Shown in pieces: positions 5,491 to 38,452 of a stretch of DNA of 38,452 nucleotides. The DNA comes from a virus (taxonomy: Duplodnaviria; Heunggongvirae; Uroviricota; Caudoviricetes): positions 1 to 38,452 of the IMG/VR virus record IMGVR_UViG_2728369592_000010. One strand, 5' to 3'. The notes under the pieces were generated by a model. It did not search any database and was not told where the DNA came from. It saw only the letters and a list, made by a program, of their open reading frames with translations. Made by a program: the position numbers and the translations under genes. Positions within the stretch are counted from its first letter, which is position 1. Every line of letters starts with the position of its first letter.

Positions 5491-5507
5491 ATTACCTTTC
5501 AGGTAAT
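5491..5507. promoter_or_regulatory. Operator-like palindrome ATTACCTTTCAGGTAAT (TTACC-N5-GGTAA family)
   Basis: Perfect inverted repeat; identical core to the site at 22435-22449. Confidence 0.6.
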
Positions 5508-5543
5508 TTGCAAAACGTGCTGGATAGCAAACAAATTATTTGC

Positions 5544-5563
5544 TACTGTATAAATATACAGTT
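5544..5563. promoter_or_regulatory. LexA (SOS) box TACTGTATAAATATACAGTT
   Basis: CTGT-N8-ACAG with AT-rich spacer, 18/20 match to the E. coli consensus TACTGTATATATATACAGTA; 5-20 bp upstream of the start of the plus-strand small gene. Confidence 0.75.
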
Positions 5564-5568
5564 ATTGC

Positions 5569-5841
5569 ATGGAGAAGATTAAGATGCAGCAGTATCACTA
5601 TCCACTGGAAGACGGATTTACCGAAAGGATTCACACGCCGGGAGGCGTCAGGTCACTGGTGGAGGGATCGCACTTGATGAAATTACTCCGGGATCTCGAT
5701 AAGGATGGATTTAATGTCGATGGCCCACTTGCCGAACTGACTGCACTGATTAACTACGTCACCAGCTCACAGATGTCTATGCAGGATCTGCAAACACATC
5801 TCGACTATTGTGCCGAACAATTACGAAAACAAACCCGGTAA
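5569..5841 (+). CDS. Small SOS-regulated protein, candidate antirepressor (likely start at ATG 5584 after GGAGAAG)
   Basis: Opposite strand to flanking virion genes, own LexA-box promoter and downstream hairpin; 85-90 aa soluble protein with no family I can assign. Confidence 0.6.
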   Translation: MEKIKMQQYHYPLEDGFTERIHTPGGVRSLVEGSHLMKLLRDLDKDGFNVDGPLAELTALINYVTSSQMSMQDLQTHLDYCAEQLRKQTR

Positions 5842-22412: not shown

Positions 22413-22450
22413 TTGACATTTAACGCACGAATTATTACCTTTCAGGTAAC
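22413..22450 (+). promoter_or_regulatory. Candidate promoter (-35 TTGACA at 22413-22418) overlapped by operator-like palindrome ATTACCTTTCAGGTAAC (22434-22450)
   Basis: Consensus -35 hexamer on the plus strand about 350 nt upstream of the tRNA; operator covers the expected -10/+1 region. Confidence 0.45.
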
Positions 22451-22771: not shown

Positions 22772-22848
22772 GTGGCATTAGCTCAGTTGGACAGAGCAAC
22801 CGCCTTCTAAGCGGTTGGTCGCAGGTTCGAATCCTGCATGCCACGCCA
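22772..22848 (+). tRNA. tRNA-Arg (anticodon UCU, reads AGA), phage-encoded, with encoded CCA
   Basis: Manually folded cloverleaf: acceptor GTGGCAT/ATGCCAC, D-stem GCTC/GAGC, anticodon stem ACCGC/GCGGT with loop CTTCTAA (TCT at 22806-22808), T-arm GCAGG-TTCGAAT-CCTGC, discriminator G, CCA; similar to but distinct from host argU as I recall it. Confidence 0.85.
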
Positions 22849-23041: not shown

Positions 23042-23920
23042 ATGACCACAAATTACCTTAAAGGTATAATCATGAAAAACTTTAAGGTAATTAGTATGTT
23101 CGAATCGTTCAAAGAGCTGTTTTTATCTACTGCCAATACTGCCGTGCATCGAGCTAAAAACCCTGTGCTTGGTGCTTTTGTTATGTCCTGGTGCGCCTTC
23201 AACTGGAAATCACTTCTTTATCTATTTTTTAGCAAATCAAATATAATAGATAAAATTTCATACATCTCAGATAACAGCACATGGAAAACTGTTATGTTTT
23301 ATCCATGCTTATCTGTAATTACTATCTGCTGCCTATTACCATGGGTAAACAATATCATTAACGTATGGCAAGCAAAGCCTCTTGATAATAATGACTCAAT
23401 CGAAAATCACCGGAAGGCAAGAAAAATACAACGTGAAACACGGCTACAGAGATTGCTGGCTAAAAAAGACATTACTTACGAAAAAGTAAAAACAGGCGCT
23501 GAAAAAAACATTCAAGACATGAAAGAGGAAATAATTCTTTCAAAAGACAGAATGGGACAACTCACATCTGAATTGAAAGAGAGGGAGACAGAACTGCGCG
23601 CAGAACAAGCTCGTATTTTAGAATTATCTAAGGTTATTGATGAAACAACATCTAAACTAGAAAATCTAGAAAAAGCTCACAAAAATTTAAAAAACGAATA
23701 TGAGTCCTATAAGAAAAACATTCCTTTGGCAACAAATAATACAATTGCTAATGGGCTTGTAGGTCTAAAATCATTACAAGACCTTAATGAGTCCGTAAAG
23801 AAACTTGGCGTTACTGGAATTAACAATCCAGAAATCAATACATTATTGAATAATCCTCTAGTAAATATAAATGGTGGTTTAAATTCCACCTATCAAAGAA
23901 AATTAAAAACACAAAAGTAA
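23042..23920 (+). CDS. AT-rich moron: membrane-anchored coiled-coil protein of unknown function (candidate exclusion/abortive-infection effector); probable start at ATG 23096
   Basis: Clearly AT-rich relative to flanks (by eye about 35% vs about 50% GC); opposite strand to terminase and portal; own -10 TATAAT at 23065-23070 overlapped by near-operator TTACCTTAAAGGTAT (23053-23067); two N-terminal TM helices then about 120-aa coiled coil; uses AGA/AGG Arg codons. Confidence 0.75.
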   Translation: MTTNYLKGIIMKNFKVISMFESFKELFLSTANTAVHRAKNPVLGAFVMSWCAFNWKSLLYLFFSKSNIIDKISYISDNSTWKTVMFYPCLSVITICCLLPWVNNIINVWQAKPLDNNDSIENHRKARKIQRETRLQRLLAKKDITYEKVKTGAEKNIQDMKEEIILSKDRMGQLTSELKERETELRAEQARILELSKVIDETTSKLENLEKAHKNLKNEYESYKKNIPLATNNTIANGLVGLKSLQDLNESVKKLGVTGINNPEINTLLNNPLVNINGGLNSTYQRKLKTQK

Positions 23921-25393: not shown

Positions 25394-25986
25394 TGATTAC
25401 CATCCTGACGTTCTTTGAGTCGCTTCCTGGCTGCTGCTATGCGATCAGCAATTGTCACATTCACATTAACATCCAGACGTTCTTTGAACGCGTTGACATC
25501 AACATGCTTACCAATCAGCTCAAGGTTCTTCACCTTGTCAGGCCATTTAATTTTTTTGAGGATTGTCTCTATCGAATCCTCGTTCATGTTCATGATGGTC
25601 GATGACAGATCAAAGCCACTAAGCGTAGTGCGCCAGATTTTCGGCCACTCACGGATTGGTTTAAGGCTCCCATCGTCGTTGAGGATGTCGATCACGTCCA
25701 TCTGGTCGATCTCCACCAGGCGCATGAGAACGTAATCAGCACTGACGCGCATTCGTTTGTTGCGCTCCTCCATCAACTCGGCAATCCGTTTTTGAATGCG
25801 TTCATCGCGCATCATGACACTGGCTTTAACTGCCGCTGTATTTGGGGAGAATCCTGCGTTAATCGCTGCCTGAGTCTGGTTTTCAGGCGTTTTGATGTAT
25901 GACTGGCAATAAGCCTCCTGCATTGCTGTTAGTGGCTTAAATTGCGTTGATTTGCGTTTATAGGTTTTAGGTTCAGCAGGCATCAT
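25390..25986 (-). CDS. Terminase small subunit (start set at MMPAEP; ORF-track start at 26064 adds a low-complexity extension without SD)
   Basis: Motif AAINAGFSPNTAAVKASVMMRDERIQKRIAE is typical of small terminase DNA-binding domains; GGTGG before the internal ATGs. Confidence 0.75.
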   Translation of the reverse strand: MMPAEPKTYKRKSTQFKPLTAMQEAYCQSYIKTPENQTQAAINAGFSPNTAAVKASVMMRDERIQKRIAELMEERNKRMRVSADYVLMRLVEIDQMDVIDILNDDGSLKPIREWPKIWRTTLSGFDLSSTIMNMNEDSIETILKKIKWPDKVKNLELIGKHVDVNAFKERLDVNVNVTIADRIAAARKRLKERQDGNQ

Positions 25987-25993
25987 AACCACC

Positions 25994-26025
25994 GTGGTAA
26001 TAGTTACCGTTGTGGTAATAGTACC
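25994..26025. repeat. Two direct copies of an everted GGTAA/TTACC element (GTGGTAATAGTTACC and GTGGTAATAGTACC) upstream of the terminase small subunit
   Basis: Read directly; half-sites are the same as the operator family but in everted arrangement with 3-bp spacer. Confidence 0.4.
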
Positions 26026-26096
26026 ATGCAAAATAAAGCCGCCATAGTTGGCGGCAGTATTCAAAACCCATCAAATTCATCATGCATAATCTACTC

Positions 26097-26108
26097 GTGA
26101 CATGTCAC
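26097..26108. repeat. 12-bp perfect palindrome GTGACATGTCAC (second copy at 5866-5877)
   Basis: Identical 12-mers at two loci, each overlapping the TGA stop of a small minus-strand gene at the same palindrome positions. Confidence 0.5.
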
Positions 26109-26443
26109 ACTATTAATTTCGTTTCATGCCAGCCTTTAGTCACCCAGCATTGCGAGTCACCATTACACGGGCATGAATTAACTGGAACTCTCTCGCCGCA
26201 CTTACCGCAACATTTTCTGCTGATCGATTTTATACGCCCGCGCACGCGTGCATCATCCTGGCGGATCAGTAACGCTATATACTCACCAAATTCGTAAGGC
26301 GCACGCCCGGGGCGACGCGTGGCACAGTTACGCTCCAGCATTTCAATTTCCTGAGCATCAAGCACAATTTCCAGCTTACGCACACCAGATGCAGCTTGTC
26401 TGGCTCTCTGAGCGGCTTTGCGCTCTGCTGCTGATTTAGCCAT
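26105..26443 (-). CDS. Small Cys-rich protein (putative zinc-ribbon regulator), last gene before the packaging operon
   Basis: 112 aa; basic N-terminal helix then C-terminal CCGKCG...CPCNGDSQC cysteine cluster. Confidence 0.6.
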   Translation of the reverse strand: MAKSAAERKAAQRARQAASGVRKLEIVLDAQEIEMLERNCATRRPGRAPYEFGEYIALLIRQDDARVRGRIKSISRKCCGKCGERVPVNSCPCNGDSQCWVTKGWHETKLIV

Positions 26444-26789
26444 TCTGATTTTCCTGCATCATGAGAAATACAATCATGGCGGCTCGGAGTGGATTATTCG
26501 CATGAAAGCAAATGTTCTCGGCATTAAAAACAGCTGACCACTCACCGCGAGATTGGTGGCAGGTTAGACTGATTTTATTATCAACAATAATAGGCCATGC
26601 ATCCGATGGATTATTGCAGTAGTCAGGTAAAGGGTTTAATGGCTCAAAAGTTGTATCAGTATTTCCGTAATACCATTTGTTGGTGTTATTCCCTGATGTT
26701 TCCGGTTTACACGCCCAAAGGCCTTTAAAAATTATGTCTCCTACCATTCTGTTAATTTCAAAATCACTTAACTGTGAATAGTCCATCAT
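26436..26789 (-). CDS. DUF2591/NinX-like phage protein
   Basis: C-terminal PLRAAMIVFLMMQE and CNNPSDAWPII motifs match my recollection of the DUF2591 family in lambdoid nin regions. Confidence 0.6.
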   Translation of the reverse strand: MMDYSQLSDFEINRMVGDIIFKGLWACKPETSGNNTNKWYYGNTDTTFEPLNPLPDYCNNPSDAWPIIVDNKISLTCHQSRGEWSAVFNAENICFHANNPLRAAMIVFLMMQENQNG

Positions 26790-27916
26790 TTTGCCTCCTG
26801 CGGCGGTTCTGGTAGCGGCATCCAGTGAGTTACATGTGCCCCGTAATGATTCCAGAACGACGCAACTGGCTCACTGTCTCCATCAGGGACAACCCAGTAA
26901 TCGTGATGAACTTTATTATTAAGCCCATCAAACACCAGATACTCTTTACAACTTCCGGGAATGTTCTCAGGCATTCGCTCACTACAGCTTATCCAACCAT
27001 CCGGAGTTACCGGATAGTTGCCAGCCAGTCTACGCAAAACAGTCTTAACCGCCTCAATACGGTCATCATCGCAACTTTCCAGCGTATCTATGCGATCGAG
27101 CATGATGATGGCGTTATCAATATCAGGATTGCCGGTCCACTCATTACCGCGATTGGATTCGGCAGCCTGGTTGCCGCGTACTGGTTGATTCTCGGCTTTA
27201 CCCTGTCTGTCGTCGCTGCATGAATGCCCTTCCAGCCAGACCAGTGCTTGTCGCATGAAATACGCAATATGCTTGCCGTGGTAATCGTCTTCATCGATGT
27301 GAAAAGCGATACTGCGGATATATTCAATTGCGTTTTCAATGGCCTCCGGCGTTATCGGAGTTGGTCCATCGAATTCGGGCATGTCAGGACCTTTTCTGAT
27401 AGCTTTAGCCAGCTCCAGCGGGTCATCGTAAAGCCAGTCGCCAGTTTGTGGGTGATTTGCTTCTGCAAGCTGCGCAGCCCATTCAAGACCATCTTTTTGA
27501 CCTTGGAGATAATCAAGCGGCAACTCTTCATGATTACTTGCAGGTTCGGCACTATGAAGCATGGCGGCGCGGCATGCGTTCCAGCCTCTCACCTCTGCAA
27601 TAGCGGCAACAGCATCAACCGCGTACATGCTAAGAGGATTAGGCATTGGTTTTTCTTCCGGTACTACTGGCACTGGAGGGGTGGCGTAGAGTGGAACTCC
27701 TCCCCCTCCACCAGAAAATTCATTGCGAGCGTTATACTCACGACCATCTGCGTCATCACGCATCCACGCCACCGGTTCTGCTTCCAGCGATGCCAGTGCA
27801 ATTCGTGCCAGTTCCCTAAGATTTTCGCTATATGGTGAAGTATTATCACGATTGATTATGTGATTAGCTGTATCTATGAGAACTTGCTTTTGTTCTTCTC
27901 TGGTCATAGTGGTCAT
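26786..27916 (-). CDS. DUF551 domain-containing phage protein
   Basis: C-terminal WMPLPEPP signature of DUF551; acidic N-terminal region. Confidence 0.7.
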   Translation of the reverse strand: MTTMTREEQKQVLIDTANHIINRDNTSPYSENLRELARIALASLEAEPVAWMRDDADGREYNARNEFSGGGGGVPLYATPPVPVVPEEKPMPNPLSMYAVDAVAAIAEVRGWNACRAAMLHSAEPASNHEELPLDYLQGQKDGLEWAAQLAEANHPQTGDWLYDDPLELAKAIRKGPDMPEFDGPTPITPEAIENAIEYIRSIAFHIDEDDYHGKHIAYFMRQALVWLEGHSCSDDRQGKAENQPVRGNQAAESNRGNEWTGNPDIDNAIIMLDRIDTLESCDDDRIEAVKTVLRRLAGNYPVTPDGWISCSERMPENIPGSCKEYLVFDGLNNKVHHDYWVVPDGDSEPVASFWNHYGAHVTHWMPLPEPPQEAK

Positions 27917-27917
27917 A

Positions 27918-28217
27918 TCACATCACCCTGAAGCCGTTGCATTTACGTAAGAAATCGCAGATATAGCCCTTCATTTTTTCATGCCAATCTCGATCATTCC
28001 CATTGCACCAACCATCAGGTGGAGTCCAGTTTTCTATCAGAGCAACCATTTTCTTTGCTTTCGCCGGAGTAGCTGTTGCGGTATCGCAGTAATGACGAGT
28101 GTCAACCAACGCATCCATACCATCGATATCAAGTACGCAAAACCATGTGTGATTCGGCATTCCAACAGATGGTATTTGTTGCCCACGTCGACGTTTATCA
28201 ATAAGACATACAGTCAT
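27918..28217 (-). CDS. Hypothetical phage protein
   Basis: 99-aa ORF translationally coupled within the nin-like block. Confidence 0.55.
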   Translation of the reverse strand: MTVCLIDKRRRGQQIPSVGMPNHTWFCVLDIDGMDALVDTRHYCDTATATPAKAKKMVALIENWTPPDGWCNGNDRDWHEKMKGYICDFLRKCNGFRVM

Positions 28218-28759
28218 GGTTCCACCTTCTCTATTTGCTTAAGACCGTCTCTCACTGCATTAAGTACGCGTTCCAGATACTGGTATTTCGGGTTTGGTGC
28301 CGTTGGCCAGTCGGCATACCACGGATCATCACCAAAGAGATTCAGCAGTTTGTTACCGACACCGAAACAACAGCAGCTTTCTTTTACGTCATCGGCGTTT
28401 TCCGCCTCGTCCCACATTTCTCGAGCCTGTACCGCGTCGATTTCTCTCTCTCTTCGTAACTTTATGATTTCTGACTTCACGAAAAGCAGATTTGCATCGT
28501 TGTCATCGTCGACCGTGCTTCGCAGTTGAGGGTCGAAATAGCCGATTAGATACTCGTTGCTGACCCGCTTAATGAACGTCTGCACATCATCACCGCCCAT
28601 AGCAAACCAAGCCGCAGTCCACGCTTTTCCGTAGCAGGTGATGGTGATTCTTCCCTTACCAGGTTCGTAGTTTTCAATCATCACTCTAACCGGATCTAGT
28701 CGCTCTGCACCGGTTATAACGAATGACAACACATCAATCTTTTCAACCGTTACACTCAC
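28214..28759 (-). CDS. Hypothetical phage protein
   Basis: 181-aa ORF overlapping both neighbours. Confidence 0.6.
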   Translation of the reverse strand: MSVTVEKIDVLSFVITGAERLDPVRVMIENYEPGKGRITITCYGKAWTAAWFAMGGDDVQTFIKRVSNEYLIGYFDPQLRSTVDDDNDANLLFVKSEIIKLRREREIDAVQAREMWDEAENADDVKESCCCFGVGNKLLNLFGDDPWYADWPTAPNPKYQYLERVLNAVRDGLKQIEKVEP

Positions 28760-29187
28760 TGGTTGCCTCCTTTGCGAAGCTCAGCGGCGAAGGCTACTGC
28801 GTGATCATGATGTTCAAGTGTGTATGCACACTCCGCAAACATCTCCACGCCCTGCGCTCGTACTTCAGCCAGGAAAGCATCGGTGGCAGGCATATTTCCT
28901 GTTGCTTTCATGGCCTCCAAGATAACCAGAACGCCATCTCTCCCAACCTCCTCGCAGATAACCTCGGTTTTGTCGCCAACAACATCGCAGAATGCCTGAA
29001 CTGCTTTACGAGCCAGCTCATTCTCCGCCGCCAGCGCATTAGCACGCACCAGTTGCACTTCCAGTTGCGTTGCCAAATCGCTGATCAGCTTTGCCACGCT
29101 GCGCATATCAACGGCACCACATTCTGCTTTCAGTTCCGAAGCCATCTCATGCCCGGCGGAAACTAACCCTTTGATATTACTTTCCAT
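28756..29187 (-). CDS. Hypothetical phage protein
   Basis: 143-aa ORF; acidic, helical. Confidence 0.6.
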   Translation of the reverse strand: MESNIKGLVSAGHEMASELKAECGAVDMRSVAKLISDLATQLEVQLVRANALAAENELARKAVQAFCDVVGDKTEVICEEVGRDGVLVILEAMKATGNMPATDAFLAEVRAQGVEMFAECAYTLEHHDHAVAFAAELRKGGNQ

Positions 29188-29248
29188 CTTTACCCTCGCT
29201 TATCCACATAACTTATTGATTACATTGATAACTAAAAAGATCGTCGAT

Positions 29249-29593
29249 TCAGAACTCTTCGATGTTCCAGCCACCACCTGCTTTCTTTGGTTTAACCGTT
29301 ACCCCGATGATTCGGAACGGATACTGATCTGCGGCGACTTTGGTTTTCACCCTGGCGTCGTCGGTCCAGAAACCTTTCACTTCGTGCAGTTCCATCTCGC
29401 CGGTGGCGAGCATCACAGCAAAATCGGGCGTATAGAACGTGTTGTCAGCTAACCGCAGCTTGATACCCTCAAATCGATACCAGGCTATTTCCCCTGCACG
29501 TTTACGCAGCTCAAGGTGCTGGCAATACGCAGATTCTGTTTTGTTCATCTGGCCTGTTTTGAGTCGACCAAGAGCCTGTATCTGTTTTCTCAT
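29249..29593 (-). CDS. DUF1064-type putative nuclease / resolvase-like protein
   Basis: Motifs YTPDFAV and ELHEVKG resemble the DUF1064 family; first gene downstream of an operator-flanked promoter. Confidence 0.65.
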   Translation of the reverse strand: MRKQIQALGRLKTGQMNKTESAYCQHLELRKRAGEIAWYRFEGIKLRLADNTFYTPDFAVMLATGEMELHEVKGFWTDDARVKTKVAADQYPFRIIGVTVKPKKAGGGWNIEEF

Positions 29594-29596
29594 GAT

Positions 29597-29673
29597 TTAC
29601 CCCTTAGGTAATTAAAAACCACATAAGACACGAAATCAATAGATTTTAGAATATTTTATTACCTCAAAGGTAA
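29597..29673 (-). promoter_or_regulatory. Promoter-operator cassette: operator TTACCTCAAAGGTAA (29659-29673), -35 TTGATT (29634-29639, minus), 17-bp spacer, -10 TTTAAT, operator TTACCCCTTAGGTAA (29597-29611) overlapping -10/+1 and the SD
   Basis: Same geometry as the plus-strand cassette at 32702-32778. Confidence 0.6.
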
Positions 29674-29685
29674 TTATCGAGACGT

Positions 29686-29704
29686 AAAAAAATGCGCTAT
29701 CGCG
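29686..29704 (-). terminator. Weak terminator after the P-like gene (GCGC-gata-GCGC then T7)
   Basis: Short all-GC stem followed by seven T on the minus strand. Confidence 0.35.
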
Positions 29705-29710
29705 CTGGTA

Positions 29711-30511
29711 TTACTTGATAAATCCTGACGCCTTTCCCCGCCTGTATTCCTCCATCAGCCACTGCGCCGGTGTTATTCCCCCAAGGGTGGCGGCGTTAGG
29801 CATGCACCCGAAACTTCGCCCTGGTGGATGGTAAACGTCTCTCCCTGTGTCCGGAGGCGTACTCATGGGTTCTGGCTTTGCCTGTATGCTGATCACCGGA
29901 TCGGGTATCTGCTGTCCGGAAGCCACCTTTTTCGCCCAATCATCGAGCAGCCTGCGCGCGTGTTTCTCAACCTCAATCTCGCTAAGCTGGCGCTGATACA
30001 TTGCACGGCGGGTATCACATACGACCCAGTACATAACCGGATGCCGCCACGGGAATCTTTCGGGACCACCAGGATATAAACTTTTTTCCTTGCTGTACCG
30101 GTGAAACTCCGCCATCACATCGTCAATGGTGACGCCAAGAACCATCTTGCTGTCTTTGCACCACTTGATAAATTGCCCTGGCGACGGCCAGAACGGAGAT
30201 TCACTGGCGCGGGCGTGGCGCATACCAGCAGAAACCTGTTCACGGGTTCGGATCCCCCCTTCGGCAAACGCAGCAATCCACTGCTGTTTTGCAGCGACTT
30301 CCTGCTCTGGCGTCTTCAGGTTGGTTACCACTGCCGCCGGAAACAGCTGTTTCAGCTGTTTGAAAAGGGCATCAACAAGCCTCTCTGCTGACATGTTCAC
30401 CACATTGTCATTGTTGACGTACTGATGCTCATAACCTGACATGCGAGAAAGGGCTTCTCCGTCACGGTTTTGTATCGCGGTAAAAACGTTGTTCACAAGA
30501 AATCCTCCCAC
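29711..30511 (-). CDS. Replication protein P-like helicase loader
   Basis: REQVSAGMRHARASESPFWPSPGQFIKWCKD aligns with lambda P MEQVNAGMRVARRQNRPFLPSPGQFVAWCRE (from memory). Confidence 0.85.
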   Translation of the reverse strand: MGGFLVNNVFTAIQNRDGEALSRMSGYEHQYVNNDNVVNMSAERLVDALFKQLKQLFPAAVVTNLKTPEQEVAAKQQWIAAFAEGGIRTREQVSAGMRHARASESPFWPSPGQFIKWCKDSKMVLGVTIDDVMAEFHRYSKEKSLYPGGPERFPWRHPVMYWVVCDTRRAMYQRQLSEIEVEKHARRLLDDWAKKVASGQQIPDPVISIQAKPEPMSTPPDTGRDVYHPPGRSFGCMPNAATLGGITPAQWLMEEYRRGKASGFIK

Positions 30512-31308
30512 GCTTCAGGGCTGTTCCAGTGCGGAACGTTGTTATCAGGTAATGTTGATTGCTTCTGTCTGCTAATCTGCAGCCGCCTTGCCAGCTTCTG
30601 CTCCCACTGTGCCTGATGGTATGCCTTACCCTCAGCCATCCAGTAAATTCTGAACTCTGCAAGTTCCTGTGCTGTTGGCAGACTGTCCAGGTAGATCCCC
30701 TGCAATGAGCTTTTCCGAAGAAAGTCATCTGATGGCTGCCATTGTTCATGCATGACAAATTTGCCTAATTGCCCTGGCCCACCAGGAGGAACAAAGTTAT
30801 TCATCACGGCGTTGTTTGCGCCGGGGTCATGAGGCACAGAATCCCCGCTTTTTGTCCTGCTCTCCCTCTCTTGGTTAAATGACTGGTTATATGACTGGTT
30901 CTGGATCCCGTTTTTGGGATCATTCAACATCCCGTTTTTGGGATCATTCAACATCCCGTTTTTGGGTATATTCCCGTTTTCGGTAACATTACCGTTTTCG
31001 GGTTCATTACCCCCTTCCCGGTTGCCTTTAATGTTCCCGTTTTTGGTTATATTAAGAGAGAAAACCCGCACTCTTTTCGTCGCTCCCTTTCTCTCTCCGG
31101 TATCTGAAATAAGCCCCATTTTCATGAGCGATATAAGTCCGGCCTGCACGGTTTTTTTATTCAGGCAAGTGTCTTTAACGAGGCGTTCTATGCTGGGGTA
31201 GCAGAGGTTATATTCATCGGCTCTGTCAGCCATCGAGAGCAGTATGAGCTTTAATGACGAGCTACCTGGATCTGTCTCCCAGGCCCAATCTGTTGCATGT
31301 CTGCTCAT
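30493..31308 (-). CDS. Replication initiator (lambda O-like) with N-terminal winged-helix and internal iteron-encoded repeat
   Basis: N-terminal HTH-like region, central NGN/KNG peptide repeats encoded by DNA iterons, C-terminal region upstream of the P-like gene as in lambda O-P. Confidence 0.8.
   Translation of the reverse strand: MSRHATDWAWETDPGSSSLKLILLSMADRADEYNLCYPSIERLVKDTCLNKKTVQAGLISLMKMGLISDTGERKGATKRVRVFSLNITKNGNIKGNREGGNEPENGNVTENGNIPKNGMLNDPKNGMLNDPKNGIQNQSYNQSFNQERESRTKSGDSVPHDPGANNAVMNNFVPPGGPGQLGKFVMHEQWQPSDDFLRKSSLQGIYLDSLPTAQELAEFRIYWMAEGKAYHQAQWEQKLARRLQISRQKQSTLPDNNVPHWNSPEAWEDFL
30905..31053. repeat. Origin-like iteron array inside the O-like gene: two perfect 24-bp copies ATCCCGTTTTTGGGATCATTCAAC plus about five degenerate CCGTTTT(T)GG units
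   Basis: Read directly; each unit has an ATCCC...GGGAT inverted core, as in lambda ori iterons. Confidence 0.7.
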
Positions 31309-31323
31309 GATTAATCTCCGCTA

Positions 31324-31524
31324 TCAGCTTGAATGTTGTGGGGAGGAATTAATCATGATCTGCTTAATCTCTGCCCTGATGCGACGGTTTGATTCCATGG
31401 TGCACTCAACACAGTGTCCGTTGTAAACCCAGCGTTCACTGTCATGTCCGTGCTTACATGGTTTTCCGGTGTAGTAGCGTTTAAGTCCGCGCTTTGCGGC
31501 ATCAATACGTGTAATGATTTCCAT
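31324..31524 (-). CDS. Small zinc-ribbon-like protein in the cII position (start at MEIITR)
   Basis: C-x-H-x-H...C-x2-C cluster; ORF-track N-terminal extension is hydrophobic and lacks SD. Confidence 0.5.
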   Translation of the reverse strand: MEIITRIDAAKRGLKRYYTGKPCKHGHDSERWVYNGHCVECTMESNRRIRAEIKQIMINSSPQHSS

Positions 31525-31558
31525 GGCAAGCCCTGTTATTAGTATTGGGATTACGGTT

Positions 31559-31619
31559 ATTTTGTGCTGACACAAAAAAAAGATCAACCAGATTTGGTTT
31601 TTTATTACCTTTGAGGTGC
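31559..31619 (-). promoter_or_regulatory. Candidate promoter for the replication operon: half-degenerate operator TTACCTTTGAGGTGC (31605-31619), -35 TTGATC, palindrome TTTTGTG-ctga-CACAAAA (31560-31577) over the spacer/-10
   Basis: Read directly on the minus strand. Confidence 0.4.
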
Positions 31620-31627
31620 GAATAGAT

Positions 31628-31652
31628 ATGAAAAGACCGCCGGATGGCGGTC
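31628..31652 (-). terminator. Rho-independent terminator after the Cro-like gene (tR1 analogue): GACCGCC-atcc-GGCGGTC then TTTTC
   Basis: Perfect 7-bp GC-rich stem with T-run on the minus strand, 23 nt after the Cro-like stop. Confidence 0.6.
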
Positions 31653-31674
31653 TACAGAGGGTTGTGGCTGGATA

Positions 31675-31905
31675 TCATGAGTAGAAGAAGTATGCCAGTT
31701 CTGCTTTTGAGCGCAACCATTGTCTTGATTTACAGGCTTTAAAAAGCCCATTCATCAATACTTTACCTGGCATTTTGCGCTTACCTGTTAAGTGAGTCTG
31801 GATATAGTGACTCGTCGTTCCGGCTTCCTGTGCGAAGGCTTCACGCTCATCCGGAGTAAGTGCAAGCCAGTGCTTTTTGAAATCGAAATGTCCGTTATCG
31901 CTCAT
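31675..31905 (-). CDS. Cro-like small HTH regulator, first gene of the lytic-direction operon
   Basis: 76 aa with HTH-like segment EREAFAQEAGTTSHYIQTHLTGKR; divergent from the repressor gene across an operator cluster. Confidence 0.6.
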   Translation of the reverse strand: MSDNGHFDFKKHWLALTPDEREAFAQEAGTTSHYIQTHLTGKRKMPGKVLMNGLFKACKSRQWLRSKAELAYFFYS

Positions 31906-31941
31906 AGCTATTGCCTGATATTTATTTCAGATAATAAATAT

Positions 31942-32004
31942 TCACCCATAAGGTAACAAAAATCAAGGATAGTTACCTATGGGGTGCATTTACCTGTTGG
32001 GTAA
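31942..32004. promoter_or_regulatory. Tripartite operator cluster between Cro-like and repressor genes: TCACCCATAAGGTAA (31942-31956), TTACCTATGGGGTGC (31973-31987), TTACCTGTTGGGTAA (31990-32004)
   Basis: Three TTACC-N5-GGTAA-family sites in the 154-bp divergent intergenic region. Confidence 0.6.
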
Positions 32005-32059
32005 TATTGCTTTAAATTGAATCATCTACTGATTCATATATGAGGCGATTTTCCAGAAA

Positions 32060-32644
32060 ATGAAAAGTATCCAGGACGTCCGCAGGCAAAATCTCAACGA
32101 CTTGATCGACCGTGAATTCAATGGTGTTCAGACGCGGATGGCAGAAAAACTTGGAACTCAGGCAAATCTGGTAAACCGCTGGGCTCTTGGCAAGAAGGTT
32201 ATCGGCGACCAGGTTGCGCGAAAAATTGAAGCTGCCGCCAATAAACCCCGTAACTGGCTTGATATCGATCGCTCGCTTTCTCAGGAAGGTTTTCAGCCTG
32301 TCGGCCCAAGCGACATTGGTCAGCTAGCGGCTCACAACCTGGAACGCTGGATGAGCGAAAGCCGCGACCTTTCAACACAGGGAAAACTTCACCGCGCATC
32401 CGGCGTCGCCCAGGTGACAATCAGCCGCCTGTTAAACAATGAGGTCAGCGTTTCCATTTCCACCCTGGAGAATGTTGCATCCGCATTCGGGCGTCACGGA
32501 TATGAACTACTGATTCACCCGCACGACCCTGCGACTATCAACTATGACCGCTCACGCTACGCATTGTTACCCGAAACCGAGAAAGCAAAGATCGAAAGTT
32601 ACATTGAATTTGTCATCAACCAGAACGAAAAAAGCAAACAATAA
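32060..32644 (+). CDS. Immunity repressor candidate with two tandem XRE-type HTH domains and no recognisable S24 autocleavage domain
   Basis: HTH-like segments at about residues 20-65 and 110-150; no Ala-Gly cleavage site or Ser/Lys peptidase motifs seen; divergent from the Cro-like gene. Confidence 0.7.
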   Translation: MKSIQDVRRQNLNDLIDREFNGVQTRMAEKLGTQANLVNRWALGKKVIGDQVARKIEAAANKPRNWLDIDRSLSQEGFQPVGPSDIGQLAAHNLERWMSESRDLSTQGKLHRASGVAQVTISRLLNNEVSVSISTLENVASAFGRHGYELLIHPHDPATINYDRSRYALLPETEKAKIESYIEFVINQNEKSKQ

Positions 32645-32701
32645 AACTATAGTTTTCAGTAAGTAAGCCGCCTCATGGCGGCTTTTTTATTGCCAGATAG
32701 A

Positions 32702-32778
32702 TTACCTTACGGGTAATTTTTTTAACTCATATCTATTGACACCAAACCAAATAAGCATAATTATTACCCCAACGGTAA
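32702..32778 (+). promoter_or_regulatory. Early-left promoter-operator cassette: operator TTACCTTACGGGTAA (32702-32716), -35 TTGACA (32736-32741), 17-bp spacer, -10 AATTAT, operator TTACCCCAACGGTAA (32764-32778)
   Basis: Read directly; geometry mirrors the minus-strand cassette at 29597-29673. Confidence 0.6.
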
Positions 32779-32797
32779 CAGACCGAGGTAACAAGTT

Positions 32798-32950
32798 ATG
32801 CAGTGGAAAATCATCAACGGTTGGTACTGCGTTACTGCATGCGGATTCATGAGCTGGAAGTTCCGCACCTTACAGGAAGGCATTAAGTGGGCTTTCGTCA
32901 GCAAAGAAGCTCGCGATGTAGCCAACGATAACGAGATATGGGAGGGCTGA
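32798..32950 (+). CDS. Possible 50-aa leader ORF of the early-left operon
   Basis: ATG with SD GAGGTAA, not in the ORF track; Trp/Cys-rich product. Confidence 0.3.
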   Translation: MQWKIINGWYCVTACGFMSWKFRTLQEGIKWAFVSKEARDVANDNEIWEG

Positions 32951-32953
32951 TAA

Positions 32954-33252
32954 TGAACGTTAATCAGCAGAAAAATCTTCAAAAAATCATGCTGGCATTC
33001 GACAAGGACTACCGCCTGTCAGAACAGCTATATGACCGACAAGTTGAACTGATTGAGAGCATCCGACTTCATCAACTGTCCTCAACTTTCGACGTTGTAA
33101 CAGGCAAAGGCGTTCGTCAGGAAGTGCTGGAGGCTGCTAAAGACAGCCCTGAGTTCGAAGAACTGGTGGATGCCTACCGGCGCGAGGCAATGGCAATTAT
33201 AGCGCGCTGGGATCTGGCGGATCAGCTTGATGGGCAGAGGGACGCGGCATGA
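32954..33252 (+). CDS. Hypothetical early protein
   Basis: SD GGAGGG 6 nt before ATG 32954 (ORF-track start 32938 lacks SD). Confidence 0.55.
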
Positions 33253-33455
33253 AACCAACACTCCTCTCATTGCTGCGAGGTGGAAAACACAGCATCCGAG
33301 ATATGGCAAAGATTCTTGGTATCTCAAGATCGAAGGTTTCTTGGTTCATCGCTGAGCTTGAACGTCGCAAATGGGTAGAGGTAACCAGGAGCGCAATATA
33401 TTTCCACGATGGAACCCGTTCCAACAAGCAGAACGAATACAAGGTTAAGTTATGA
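33249..33455 (+). CDS. Small putative DNA-binding protein (wHTH-like)
   Basis: 68 aa; segment SIRDMAKILGISRSKVSWFIAELERRKW resembles a helix-turn-helix. Confidence 0.5.
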   Translation: MKPTLLSLLRGGKHSIRDMAKILGISRSKVSWFIAELERRKWVEVTRSAIYFHDGTRSNKQNEYKVKL

Positions 33456-34273
33456 ATACTGGCATCTATTTCGACATCAGCAATGAGGACTACCACGCCG
33501 GTGACGGCGTGAGTAAGTCGCAACTGGACATGGTTGCCAAGAATCCGGCGCTTCTTAAATGGGTTCAGGCAGCACCAGAAGACGAAGAGAAAAAGTCTGC
33601 ACTAGATATGGGAACTGCATTGCACTGTCTGCTTCTTGAACCTGGAGAATTCGACAAACGCTTCATTGTTTCACCAAAGTTCGATCGTCGGACGAAACAA
33701 GGTAAAGCTGACGAAGAAGCATTTCTTCGTGATGTAGCGGATATGGGGATTGCGGTACTTGATGCCGAGCAGTGGCGGAAACTGGAGCTGATGCGTGATA
33801 GCGCAATGGCTCACCCGGCGGCACGCTGGATGCTGGAAGCACCTGGTTACTGCGAAGCATCAATGTACTGGAACGATGAAGAGACTGGTGAGTTGTGCCG
33901 CATTCGTCCAGACAAATGGCTGAACGAGCACAACGTGATCGTCGACGTGAAAAAGGTTGCAGATATGGACCGTTTTGCACGCCACATCGAGGAATTCCGC
34001 TACCACGTGCAGGACGCAATGTACCGCGAAGGCGCAATGAGGGTTACTGGTCAGCCGCATGGTTTTTTCTTTCTTGCCGTGAGCGAAAGCATTGATTGTG
34101 GTCGGTATCCGGTACGCGTGTTCGAGCTGGATGCGCCGGATGTCGATGCCGGGCACGCTCTGTTCCGCCGGGATCTGAATACCTATCACGAATGCCGCAT
34201 CAGCGATGAATGGGGCGGCGTGGAAATTATTAAACGCCCTGAGTGGGCACGCAAACAGGATATGTACGTATGA
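33452..34273 (+). CDS. RecE-like PD-(D/E)xK exonuclease (DUF3799-type)
   Basis: N-terminus GIYFDISNEDYHAGDGVSKSQL and D...IVDVKKV motif typical of the exonuclease VIII C-terminal domain family; immediately upstream of recT. Confidence 0.7.
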   Translation: MNTGIYFDISNEDYHAGDGVSKSQLDMVAKNPALLKWVQAAPEDEEKKSALDMGTALHCLLLEPGEFDKRFIVSPKFDRRTKQGKADEEAFLRDVADMGIAVLDAEQWRKLELMRDSAMAHPAARWMLEAPGYCEASMYWNDEETGELCRIRPDKWLNEHNVIVDVKKVADMDRFARHIEEFRYHVQDAMYREGAMRVTGQPHGFFFLAVSESIDCGRYPVRVFELDAPDVDAGHALFRRDLNTYHECRISDEWGGVEIIKRPEWARKQDMYV

Positions 34274-35894: not shown

Positions 35895-36537
35895 GAAATA
35901 CACACTAATCTATGCAGATCCACCCTGGGTATACCGGGACAAAGCCGCAGATGGTAATCGCGGTGCCAGTTTTAAATATCCGGTTATGAGTGTGATGGAT
36001 ATCTGCCGCCTTCCTGTGTGGGATTTGGCCGATGAAAACTGTCTGTTGGCCATGTGGTGGGTGCCAACACAACCACTCGAAGCGCTAAAAGTTGTTGAAG
36101 CCTGGGGATTCCGTCTGATGACCATGAAGGGCTTCACGTGGATAAAATGTGGTAGTCGACAACCAGATAAACTGGTTATGGGTATGGGACACATGACTCG
36201 CGCCAATAGTGAAGATTGCCTGTTTGCAGTAAAGGGAAAACTACCTCCACGCATTAATGCAGGGATCGTTCAGTCATTTACCGCACCGCGGCTTGAGCAT
36301 TCAAGAAAACCAGATGTCGTTCGTGAAAAACTTGTGCAATTGTTAGGCGATGTTTCTCGCATTGAACTGTTCGCCCGCCAGACGTCTCATGGCTTCGATG
36401 TTTGGGGTAATCAGTGCGAAGACCCGGCAGTGCAACTACACCCTGGATACGCGTTGGATATTGGCGGATTAACAAATGCATTCAGCAATGCTCCGGTGTC
36501 ACCAATAGACAACCAGGGGCGGGAGCGTGCAGCATGA
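35887..36537 (+). CDS. MT-A70 family DNA N6-adenine methyltransferase
   Basis: Catalytic DPPW motif in [10 protein letters not shown] near the N-terminus. Confidence 0.85.
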
Positions 36538-37195: not shown

Positions 37196-38452
37196 TTATT
37201 TATTACTGTCTTCCATCCACCTCTCAAACTTCGACGGGGAGAACGGAATCAGATCCGTATGCTCCCCGTTAATCCAGGAATCAATCATATCGGCCCACTG
37301 CTGCAACATGTAGGCGCGCTGTCTGGCGTATTCCGCTTTGTTATATACGGCGCGCACACCTTTCTGCTCATGTGCCAGAGCCTTTTCAATCCAGTCTGAA
37401 GGATAACCAGCCTCATGCAACAACGTACTTGCTGTACGGCGCATATCGTGTACGGTGAAGTCCTGAATATGCTCACCATCTTCATTTATTATTTTCACCG
37501 TTCTGTCGATCAGAGAGTTCAGCGCGGCATTAGATAATGGCTTCCGGAAATTGTAACGACCAGGAACCAGATATTCACTTCCACCAGCGCACATCTGCAA
37601 CCCAACCAATATATCCTGTGCCTGTTTAGGCAGGTAAATAACGTGCGCCCGGCTTCCCTTCATGCGGTCTGAAGGAATTGTCCATGTCCATTTTTTAAAA
37701 TCTATTTCGTCCCACGTTGCATTAGTGAATTCTCCTTTACGAACCATAGTGATAAGCACCAGCTTTAAAGCCATTTTCATAGTGCCCATAGCACCAATGG
37801 CATCCAGCGTGCGGAAGAACAGGCCAATTTCTTCTGGTGTCAGTGTTCGCTCTCGTGGTTTAAATATGGCGATAGACGAAGGTTTAATGTCAGCCGCAGG
37901 ATTAAACAAACCATGACCACGGTCATTGGCGTGACGGTATACGCTGCTGATGATCTCCCTGGCCTGTACTGCTGTTGCACGGCCACCGCGTTCGACAATC
38001 CGGTCACACAAATCACGAACCATCGATGTGGTAATTTCAGCCATCATTTTGTTGCCAAGAACCGGAAGTATGTCACGGTCGATCACCGCCTGCTTCATTG
38101 CGCGGGTACTGTCAGCCAGGATGACGTGTTTCATATAACTGTCGGTATGTACCGCAAACGTCTCGGCACCACGAATCTTTTTGATACCGTCACGTTTAGC
38201 CGCAGCCGGCGACTGGCCTGCTTTAAGCAGCTTCTTTGCAGCAATCAGTTCTTCTCGCGCTTCTGCCAGGCTGATACCGTCACGCCCATACTGCCCGATT
38301 ACCAGTGTTTCGCGGCGACCGTTGATACGGTAGTCATAGCGAAACGAGACCGTGCCTGACGTAAGCACAGCTACATACAGCCCGTCACGATCGGAGACCT
38401 TGTACAGTTTGTCCTGCGGCTTGAGGTTTTTTAATTTTGTATCGGTAAGCAC
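37196..38452 (-). CDS. int: Tyrosine recombinase / phage integrase (P4-like), start at or just beyond the window edge
   Basis: N-terminus LTDTKLKNLKP typical of P4-type integrases; C-terminal HDMRRT and downstream Tyr catalytic motifs; first in-window codon is GTG at 38452. Confidence 0.9.
   Translation of the reverse strand: MLTDTKLKNLKPQDKLYKVSDRDGLYVAVLTSGTVSFRYDYRINGRRETLVIGQYGRDGISLAEAREELIAAKKLLKAGQSPAAAKRDGIKKIRGAETFAVHTDSYMKHVILADSTRAMKQAVIDRDILPVLGNKMMAEITTSMVRDLCDRIVERGGRATAVQAREIISSVYRHANDRGHGLFNPAADIKPSSIAIFKPRERTLTPEEIGLFFRTLDAIGAMGTMKMALKLVLITMVRKGEFTNATWDEIDFKKWTWTIPSDRMKGSRAHVIYLPKQAQDILVGLQMCAGGSEYLVPGRYNFRKPLSNAALNSLIDRTVKIINEDGEHIQDFTVHDMRRTASTLLHEAGYPSDWIEKALAHEQKGVRAVYNKAEYARQRAYMLQQWADMIDSWINGEHTDLIPFSPSKFERWMEDSNK

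Follow-up and report, generated by a model that had tools for sequence, protein, structure and literature searches.

The segment at positions 29596-29674 (minus strand) of a 38,452-nt stretch of viral DNA (IMG/VR record IMGVR_UViG_2728369592_000010, positions 1 to 38,452; the whole stretch is referred to below as the window) appears to be a repressor-controlled unit that heads a secondary early operon. We designate this segment cassette B. It shares its design with cassette A, which lies at the left operator (OL) of the same phage, and the operon behind it runs from a DUF1064 resolvase gene to a predicted transcriptional regulator. Judging from the DNA sequence and its comparison with relatives, we consider it about 70% probable that cassette B acts as such a unit under control of the prophage repressor, Rep. 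The window is a Uetakevirus prophage of the phiV10/epsilon15 type, with best DNA matches to PAS61, phiv142-3, ZX5, TL-2011b and phiV10 at 96-98% identity. The analysis establishes how the two cassettes are built, with the supporting statistics and the conservation of this architecture, and that Rep and the antirepressor Ant are homologous to the switch proteins of phage SPC32H.

Each cassette carries two perfect TTACC-N5-GGTAA dyads whose starts are separated by exactly 62 bp. On the plus strand, cassette A (32702-32778) reads TTACCTTACGGGTAA-TTTTTTTAACTCAT-ATCTATTGACA, a 17-nt spacer, and AATTAT, the last T of which opens TTACCCCAACGGTAA; after the first dyad and 14 nt the sequence is ATCTATTGAC. 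Cassette B (minus strand, 29673-29597) reads TTACCTTTGAGGTAA-TAAAATATTCTAAA-ATCTATTGATT, a 17-nt spacer, and TTTAAT, whose last T opens TTACCTAAGGGGTAA; here the first dyad and 14 nt are followed by ATCTATTGAT, and the final TTACCTAAGGGGTAA is followed by ATC and then by the ATG of the DUF1064 gene, 6 nt past the proximal operator core. Direct reading confirmed the two cassettes of the initial annotation at their coordinates, together with the dyads, the 62-bp spacing and the common offset of ATCTATTGA. The 17-bp gap that follows TTGAnn and the AT-rich hexamer that ends in the first T of the second dyad were likewise borne out in both. The distance from operator to -35, which had been given as about 18 bp, has to be corrected, since 14 nt separate the 15-bp dyad core from ATCTATTGA in both cassettes and 19 nt separate it from TTGA.

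In cassette A the strong rep terminator (32665-32690, plus strand; an 8-bp stem with a T-run, -16.6 kcal/mol) lies about 12 nt 5' of the distal operator ATTACCTTACGGGTAAT (32701-32717, plus), which is followed by the promoter ATCTA-TTGACA, 17-bp spacer, AATTAT (32731-32764, plus) and by the proximal operator ATTACCCCAACGGTAAC (32763-32779, plus), which spans about -7 to +8. On the minus strand, the elements of cassette B follow one another in the same order. A weak terminator-like hairpin (GCGC-GAUA-GCGC) with a U7 tract at 29686-29705 ends the replication (P) operon and lies about 12 nt 5' of the distal operator ATTACCTTTGAGGTAAT (29658-29674), which is placed about -70 to -56 from the predicted start. 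Next come an A/T tract, AAAATATTCTAAA (29645-29657), which is a candidate UP element or bendable segment, an extended -35 box, ATCTATTGATT (29634-29644, with TTGATT at 29639-29634), and a candidate -10 region (29610-29616). The -10 could be TTTAAT if the spacer is 17 bp long, or TTAATT if it is 18 bp long, and in either case it runs into the first bases of the proximal operator. This proximal operator, ATTACCTAAGGGGTAAA (29596-29612), covers the end of the -10, the predicted start and the Shine-Dalgarno sequence AAGGGG (29605-29600). All four cassette operators are perfect matches to the 15-bp core of the 17-bp dyad ATTACC-N5-GGTAAT.

The dyad is far more common in the window than expected. 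With at most one mismatch it occurs 11 times, against 0.73 expected (standard deviation 0.84), and none of 100 shuffled sequences reached 11. ATCTATTGA occurs exactly twice, once per cassette and at the same offset. An ungapped comparison of the two cassettes gave 46/79 identical positions. The matches flanking the motif that the initial annotation had reported survive as a marginal excess when the operator half-sites are masked (23/55 positions, P = 0.03) and fade when the -35 and -10 are masked as well (18/45 against 28% expected, P = 0.056); the excess is mainly the ATCTA 5' of TTGA. The idea of a duplicated regulatory module is not supported by this comparison, in which identity outside the functional elements was at or barely above chance, and the same figures lend no support to a recent duplication of the module. 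The 18/45 value is also what might be cited for the view that A and B resemble each other by chance or through the composition of AT-rich intergenic DNA. We give that view practically no credence: four perfect dyads, each specified at 10 bases, stand at an identical 62-bp spacing around a 9-mer unique to the cassettes, where 0.73 dyads are expected in 38 kb, and the architecture holds across the genus, by which the view is already refuted.

The dyad was mapped in six relatives, epsilon15, Tyrion, SPC32H, phiV10, BUCT711 and PAT1. Each had 13-19 matches, against about 0.6 expected, and these lay at common loci: a pair 18 bp apart abutting terS, single dyads 5' of the head operon, ahead of the lysis genes and ahead of int, one or two dyads in the ant/tailspike region, those at OL and at the right operator (OR), and a pair directly after the replication genes. 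The last of these pairs was 62 bp apart in 7/7 Uetakevirus genomes, and cassette B was homologous in both position and sequence in phiV10, epsilon15, PAT1, SPC32H, Tyrion and BUCT711. When seven B and seven A cassettes were aligned (alignment A1), the half-sites of the two dyads were invariant in all 14, as were TATTGA and an AT in front of the proximal dyad; the C preceding TATTGA was nearly so, and the remainder had diverged. All B cassettes also conserve a TAAAAT-like sequence after the distal dyad. Downstream, GGTAAATCATG is the usual sequence in B, found in 6 of the 7 reference cassettes; BUCT711 has two extra A's and about 10 IMG/VR variants differ.

When IMG/VR was scanned for perfect dyads in pairs, with gaps of any length from 35 to 65 nt allowed, at least 120 loci were returned. 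Among the matches listed, 175 dyad pairs were 50-80 bp apart, of which 120 were spaced by 62 bp, 23 by 63 bp and 9 by 76 bp, with no more than 4 at any other spacing; the cassette sequences are related, so these counts are not independent. Among the 146 unique cassettes in the same matches, TATTGA was kept in nearly all, every B type had the 62-bp spacing, and A types had 62 bp, or 63 bp in a Klebsiella clade, with rare cases of 61 or 64 bp that arose from changes in T-run length. The sequence between the dyads has diverged while its length was kept. The central N5 varies freely and the half-sites never change, as is expected for a site bound by a helix-turn-helix (HTH) dimer. The cassette B region was also present in 530 of 5426 complete E. 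coli genomes, nearly always at 95% identity or more.

The two cassettes differ in promoter quality. In a promoter scan, TTGACA-17-AATTAT of cassette A scored 10/12 and was the best sigma-70 match in 25800-33000, and all 33/33 unique A cassettes have a -10 in which position 2 is A and position 6 is T. The combination of a TTGACA-like -35, a 16-18-bp spacer and a -10 with A2 and T6 is thus found in cassette A and not in cassette B of the window. Several observations on cassette B weigh against a promoter there. Its -35, TTGATT, matches the consensus at 4/6 positions, with TTGA invariant; the window's -10 has T at -11 both as TTTAAT (17 bp) and as TTAATT (18 bp); in the 17-bp register the -11 base was T, not A, in 20/20 unique B cassettes; the scan made no call at the -35/-10 of cassette B; and the 5' untranslated region from such a promoter would be just about 11 nt long. 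Other B variants have TTGATT, TTGAAA or TTGATA as the -35, and in the 18-bp register 13 of the 20 unique B cassettes have A2 and T6 (TAAATT in 12, TATATT in 1), the E. coli type, including the window, having TTAATT. Cassette B is accordingly promoter-like by position and conservation, yet sub-consensus in the window prophage, where a weak promoter is predicted from the lack of a -11A in both the 17- and the 18-bp register.

The hairpin 5' of cassette B bears on how the operon would be transcribed. It has 4 bp and a folding energy of -7.4 kcal/mol (z = -3.5), compared with -15 to -17 kcal/mol for the rep, cro and pre-terS terminators, and a terminator scan missed it for having too few pairs. 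Its stem bases are unchanged among the B rows of the 14-cassette alignment, and the corresponding site in phiV10 is marked as a terminator in the phage record. Since the B promoter is predicted to be weak, part of the expression of the B operon may come from read-through of this weak terminator. A more radical form of the same idea, which we consider unlikely, is that cassette B has no promoter of its own: transcripts from the early rightward promoter (PR) would pass the weak hairpin and feed the operon, the dyads would be roadblocks or insulators, the proximal one also occluding the ribosome-binding region on the DNA, and CTATTGA would serve another factor or be a relic. The weakness of the hairpin fits this account, as do the absence of a -11A at 17 bp in every B cassette, and at 18 bp also in the E. 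coli type, the silence of the promoter scan, and the dyads at terS and downstream of cro, which lie directly behind terminators with no recognisable -35. However, TATTGA is invariant in the 14 cassettes and stands at the very offset that it has in cassette A, where it belongs to the -35 of a 10/12 promoter; 13 of the 20 unique B types have an acceptable hexamer at an 18-bp spacer; and a conserved upstream terminator makes most sense with a new start behind it.

A different promoter, TCGATA-16 bp-TAAAAT at 29680-29653, was called by the scan over the distal dyad of cassette B with a score of 9/12; its TAAAAT (29653-29658) takes its T from the end of the distal operator (29658) and its other five bases from the adjoining A/T tract. 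If this were the working promoter, the distal dyad would lie in its spacer, and the proximal dyad, in a leader of roughly 55 nt, would be a roadblock or an RNA hairpin masking the Shine-Dalgarno sequence. This arrangement has a proper -11A and -7T, a TAAAAT or CAAAAT right behind the distal dyad is conserved in B and absent from A, and PR of the window phage also has a dyad within its spacer. We nevertheless think it very improbable, since the outer flank that contains its -35 is hypervariable and the -35 itself is unconserved (TCGATA, TCAATA, CAGTGA and TTAATG), and since it leaves the invariant CTATTGA box unexplained. Our reading is that cassette B probably contains a promoter that is real though weak, and that transcripts reading through from PR add to its output. 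The proximal dyad, which overlies the Shine-Dalgarno sequence, is crossed by either route.

The protein expected to bind these dyads is encoded by rep (32060-32644, plus strand). Its product has two HTH domains and lacks a peptidase domain; a Pfam search found HTH_3 only and no S24 peptidase domain, and the protein matched SPC32H Rep (PDB 5D50_A) at E = 3.5e-42 over residues 1-190. Three dyads (31942, 31973 and 31990) stand between rep and a cro-like gene and constitute OR (31942-32004), which identifies the dyad as the operator of the immunity repressor. The promoter scan found TTGTTA-17-TATTAT on the minus strand at OR, with the 31942 dyad within its spacer. The cro-like protein has a faint similarity to the N-terminal HTH of Rep (27% over 41 amino acids). 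Far from this region, a perfect LexA box, CTGTATAAATATACAG (5546-5561, plus), was found before the ant gene (the two together at 5546-5841, plus), the product of which, 85-90 amino acids encoded at 5569/5584-5841, matches SPC32H Ant (PDB 5D50_E) at E = 4.4e-47. The window phage thus has the components of a Rep/Ant/LexA antirepression switch, namely a repressor that has no self-cleavage domain and a small Ant homologue behind an SOS box. A Rep dyad at 5492-5506 lies between the tailspike start and ant, with the LexA box directly before ant (region 5492-5841).

For SPC32H, one report (PMC9638917) describes Rep as binding palindromic DNA as a tetramer, with DNA-binding pairs formed across dimers, and Ant as dismantling the tetramer. 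Another (PMC9986798) assigns the tetramerisation domain to a 'TetDloop' fold, linked to looping and common to Rco, and places the pairs of middle (dimerisation) domains, which carry the DNA-binding domains, about 100 Angstrom apart. For the window phage we infer Rep occupancy of the cassette sites, activity of the promoter from the predicted start, and cooperativity or looping between the dyads. The proposed unit would consist, in order, of an insulating terminator, a distal 17-bp Rep dyad, the A/T tract, the CTATTGA -35 and a -10 running into the proximal dyad. In the lysogen, an SPC32H-type Rep tetramer would be held on both dyads. At the proximal dyad, about -8 to +8, Rep would sterically prevent the open complex and would also stop read-through from PR. 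The distal dyad, about -70 to -56, would add cooperative stabilisation from the same face of the helix, 62 bp or about 5.9 helical turns away, most simply if the promoter DNA is bent by a single bivalent tetramer or by a pair of tetramers in contact with each other. Upon DNA damage, LexA cleavage would turn on ant, Ant would dismantle the Rep tetramers, and PL (the early leftward promoter), PR, the B promoter and the other loci marked by Rep dyads would be freed together.

Two operators flanking a promoter in helical register, as here with 62 bp equal to 5.9 turns, are what a loop-type arrangement calls for. Two considerations speak against the looped form of this mechanism. Bridging of both sites by a single tetramer would need a bend that we estimate at roughly 220 degrees over 62 bp, which is demanding, and the fixed spacing could instead come from each dyad being independently fixed relative to the promoter.

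The distal operators were also found to be sites of unusual sequence variation. Diversity was computed over 29447-32928 in a set of 16 prophages and phages at least 94.5% identical to the window there. Mean nucleotide diversity in this region was 0.030, with 0.012-0.077 at third codon positions, against 0.46-0.68 in the N5 of the B distal dyad and 0.3-0.7 in the corresponding N5 of cassette A and in the outer flank of each distal dyad. The hotspots, at 29659-29682 and 32693-32711, were the top-ranked 5-nt windows of the 3.5-kb region, and the B distal dyad had 13-14 distinct 19-mers where the median elsewhere was 2. The half-sites were invariant, the OR dyads were quiet, and the N5 of the proximal operators was less variable, with positions up to 0.54. 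Gene conversion between the A and B distal operators was considered and rejected: the within-genome similarity of the N5 (2.5 against 3.2 mismatches) is explained by clade structure, and a single E. coli-type genome had an identical N5 in both cassettes. An origin by hairpin or template switching, suggested by complementarity of outer flank and N5, was not adopted either, because the effect was slight, at about 2.05 against 1.78 of 4 pairs, and relatedness among the sequences confounds it. It is tempting to speculate, and we offer it as a tentative idea that we would not favor at present, that a single SPC32H-type Rep tetramer clamps both dyads in a tight micro-loop around the promoter, and that the distal dyads, through a centre and outer flank that Rep would not contact, are evolutionary tuning knobs, possibly under diversifying selection for repression strength or induction threshold. 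If this were true, it would provide a structural rationale for the 'noncanonical' tetramer with DNA-binding pairs formed in trans.

The closest known system is the Rep/Ant switch of SPC32H (PDB 5D50 and 5D4Z), of which the window Rep and Ant are clear homologues and which shares the LexA box before ant. The SPC32H genome has the same dyad at the same loci, with 62-bp pairs at 35972/36034, before a DUF1064-type gene, and at 33604/33666 in OL. Rep itself is only moderately conserved, and a figure of 42% has been given for the repressors of phiV10-type and epsilon15-type phages (PMC9782041). OL has two dyads in the window and three in the Salmonella clade, the third being 76 bp further on. The report on ZX5 predicted four promoters and left the operators undefined (PMC9782041).

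Part of this operator set has been on record in epsilon15. The annotation by Kropinski et al. (2007) in NC_004775.2 lists seven 'protein_bind: repressor' sites, at terS, gp3, the tail-fibre region, three in OL, and 35906-35922 between a replication gene and the next gene. The last is the homologue of the B distal dyad (29658-29674), while the A distal and proximal operators are homologous to the annotated sites 32616-32632 and 32554-32570. The record lacks the proximal B dyad (35969-35983), the three OR dyads (33341-33402), these dyads being found by our scan, and a promoter. A further difference is that in epsilon15, as in Tyrion and PAT1, the gene behind cassette B encodes a RuvC-type resolvase in place of DUF1064. 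Cassette B is therefore a member of the known Rep-operator set of epsilon15/SPC32H-type phages, and its repressor site was already on the epsilon15 record; the proximal dyad, the 62-bp bracket at OL and after the replication genes, the difference between A and B in promoter strength, and the variation hotspot were not found in the records and literature searched.

Outside the genus, the nearest functional analogue is the CB repressor of phage N15, which has three OR operators and two OL operators on the repA promoter (PMC4488713). There, too, an immunity repressor controls a separate second promoter through an overlapping operator pair, besides the divergent cI/cro region, but the repressor and operator sequences are unrelated, and the target is a replication gene (plasmid copy control) rather than an operon that follows the replication genes. 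Bivalent-tetramer loops such as those of LacI, GalR, DeoR and Rco are comparable in that the tetramer has two DNA-binding units and a promoter is flanked or overlapped by a pair of operators lying on one face of the helix. The Rco operators of pLS20 are 75 bp apart (PMC9986798), and 62 bp, the distance over which Rep might form a loop, is at the short end of known loops.

In phage lambda, transcription from PR extends into nin and Q through antitermination by N, and the CI repressor self-cleaves; lambda is not known to have a CI-repressed promoter at its nin region. The window phage resembles lambda in the order of repressor, divergent cro, replication genes and resolvase/Nin-type genes (NinX, PF10765), and in operators that overlap PL and PR. 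The lambda operators, however, are adjacent, about 24 bp apart, and the cassette dyads are 62 bp apart around a promoter and are paired with a Rep that lacks the peptidase domain, so that neither the spacing nor the S24-type CI of a lambda array is found here. The initial annotation had treated the B operon in lambda terms as a nin operon, and this frame does not fit a SPC32H-type Rep with two HTH domains and no S24 domain, relieved by a LexA-controlled Ant instead of self-cleavage. A lambdoid identity, with CI, nin and an N/Q cascade, is ruled out by the best DNA matches, which are Uetakevirus podoviruses, and by the repressor. As for a second repressed lytic promoter after the replication genes, which had also been proposed, an operator-bracketed, promoter-like and conserved unit does stand before DUF1064, although it is not the only additional site, since Rep dyads occur at no fewer than four other loci.

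These results concern a prophage type present in about one in ten complete E. coli genomes, relatives of which serve as reporter phages. In this group one repressor, and not an antitermination cascade, would maintain lysogeny by acting at many promoters that are each insulated, which would explain how a single antirepressor can activate the entire genome together. The units are compact and portable (terminator, operator, promoter, operator, in about 110 bp). The strict 62-bp spacing provides a testable handle on how SPC32H-type tetramers engage DNA, which is poorly characterised according to PMC9986798, where the repression mechanism of SPC32H Rep is described as not well characterised.

The operon behind cassette B begins with the DUF1064 gene (29249-29593, minus strand; Pfam PF06356, E = 3.7e-7; phrog_190, E = 7e-43), which PHROG names a 'Holliday junction resolvase'. 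It is followed by two genes of unknown function, by genes for DUF7739, a DUF551 protein and a NinX homologue, and by a last gene (26105-26443, minus) predicted to encode a transcriptional regulator on the basis of phrog_536 (E = 1.7e-54); searches of this last product against Pfam, NCBIfam and PDB sequences gave no match. A strong terminator (26038-26055) and then the terS operators follow it. Upstream of cassette B lie lambda-P-like and DnaT-like replication genes.

Beyond the cassettes and OR, Rep dyads were found at terS, at the head operon, in the ant/tailspike region, downstream of cro and at an open reading frame (ORF) that starts at 23073. At terS (25986-26062, minus) two abutting dyads, 18 bp apart, come directly after the terminator, and the one nearer to terS overlaps its Shine-Dalgarno sequence and ATGATG start. 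No recognisable -35 was found at these dyads, and the same layout of terminator and dyads occurs in epsilon15, phiV10, Tyrion and PAT1. The dyad upstream of the head operon, at 22435, is perfect. The one at 23053 has one mismatch and overlaps the ribosome-binding site of the ORF that begins at 23073, where the junction is of the GGTA-AATCATG type, as in cassette B. On the minus strand at 31600-31653, a strong terminator 3' of the cro-like gene is followed by CATATCTATTCGCACCTCAAAGGTAAT, in which the CATATCTATT box of cassette A is fused to a degenerate dyad (31605-31619); a comparable degenerate dyad is found downstream of cro in phiV10 and Tyrion, and in BUCT711 it is more weakly placed.

The ends of the element could be placed as well. 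The att core ATTGAGTGGGAATGATT, known from phiV10, epsilon15 and ZX5 (PMC9782041), occurs at 1164-1180 and marks the prophage end, so that positions 1-1163 are host DNA, and int (37196-38452) runs off the other end of the window. Within the gene for a DnaT/HTH_36 initiator, six iteron-like repeats with ATCCCGTTTTTGGGAT units spaced 24 or 18 nt apart (30905-31057) are probably the replication origin, and the ATCCCGTTTTTGGGAT unit is itself a dyad built like the Rep operator. An Rfam scan of the window returned a tRNA as its sole match; this tRNA-Arg(UCU) lies at 22772-22848 and is preceded by about 290 nt that contain no ORF or Rfam match.

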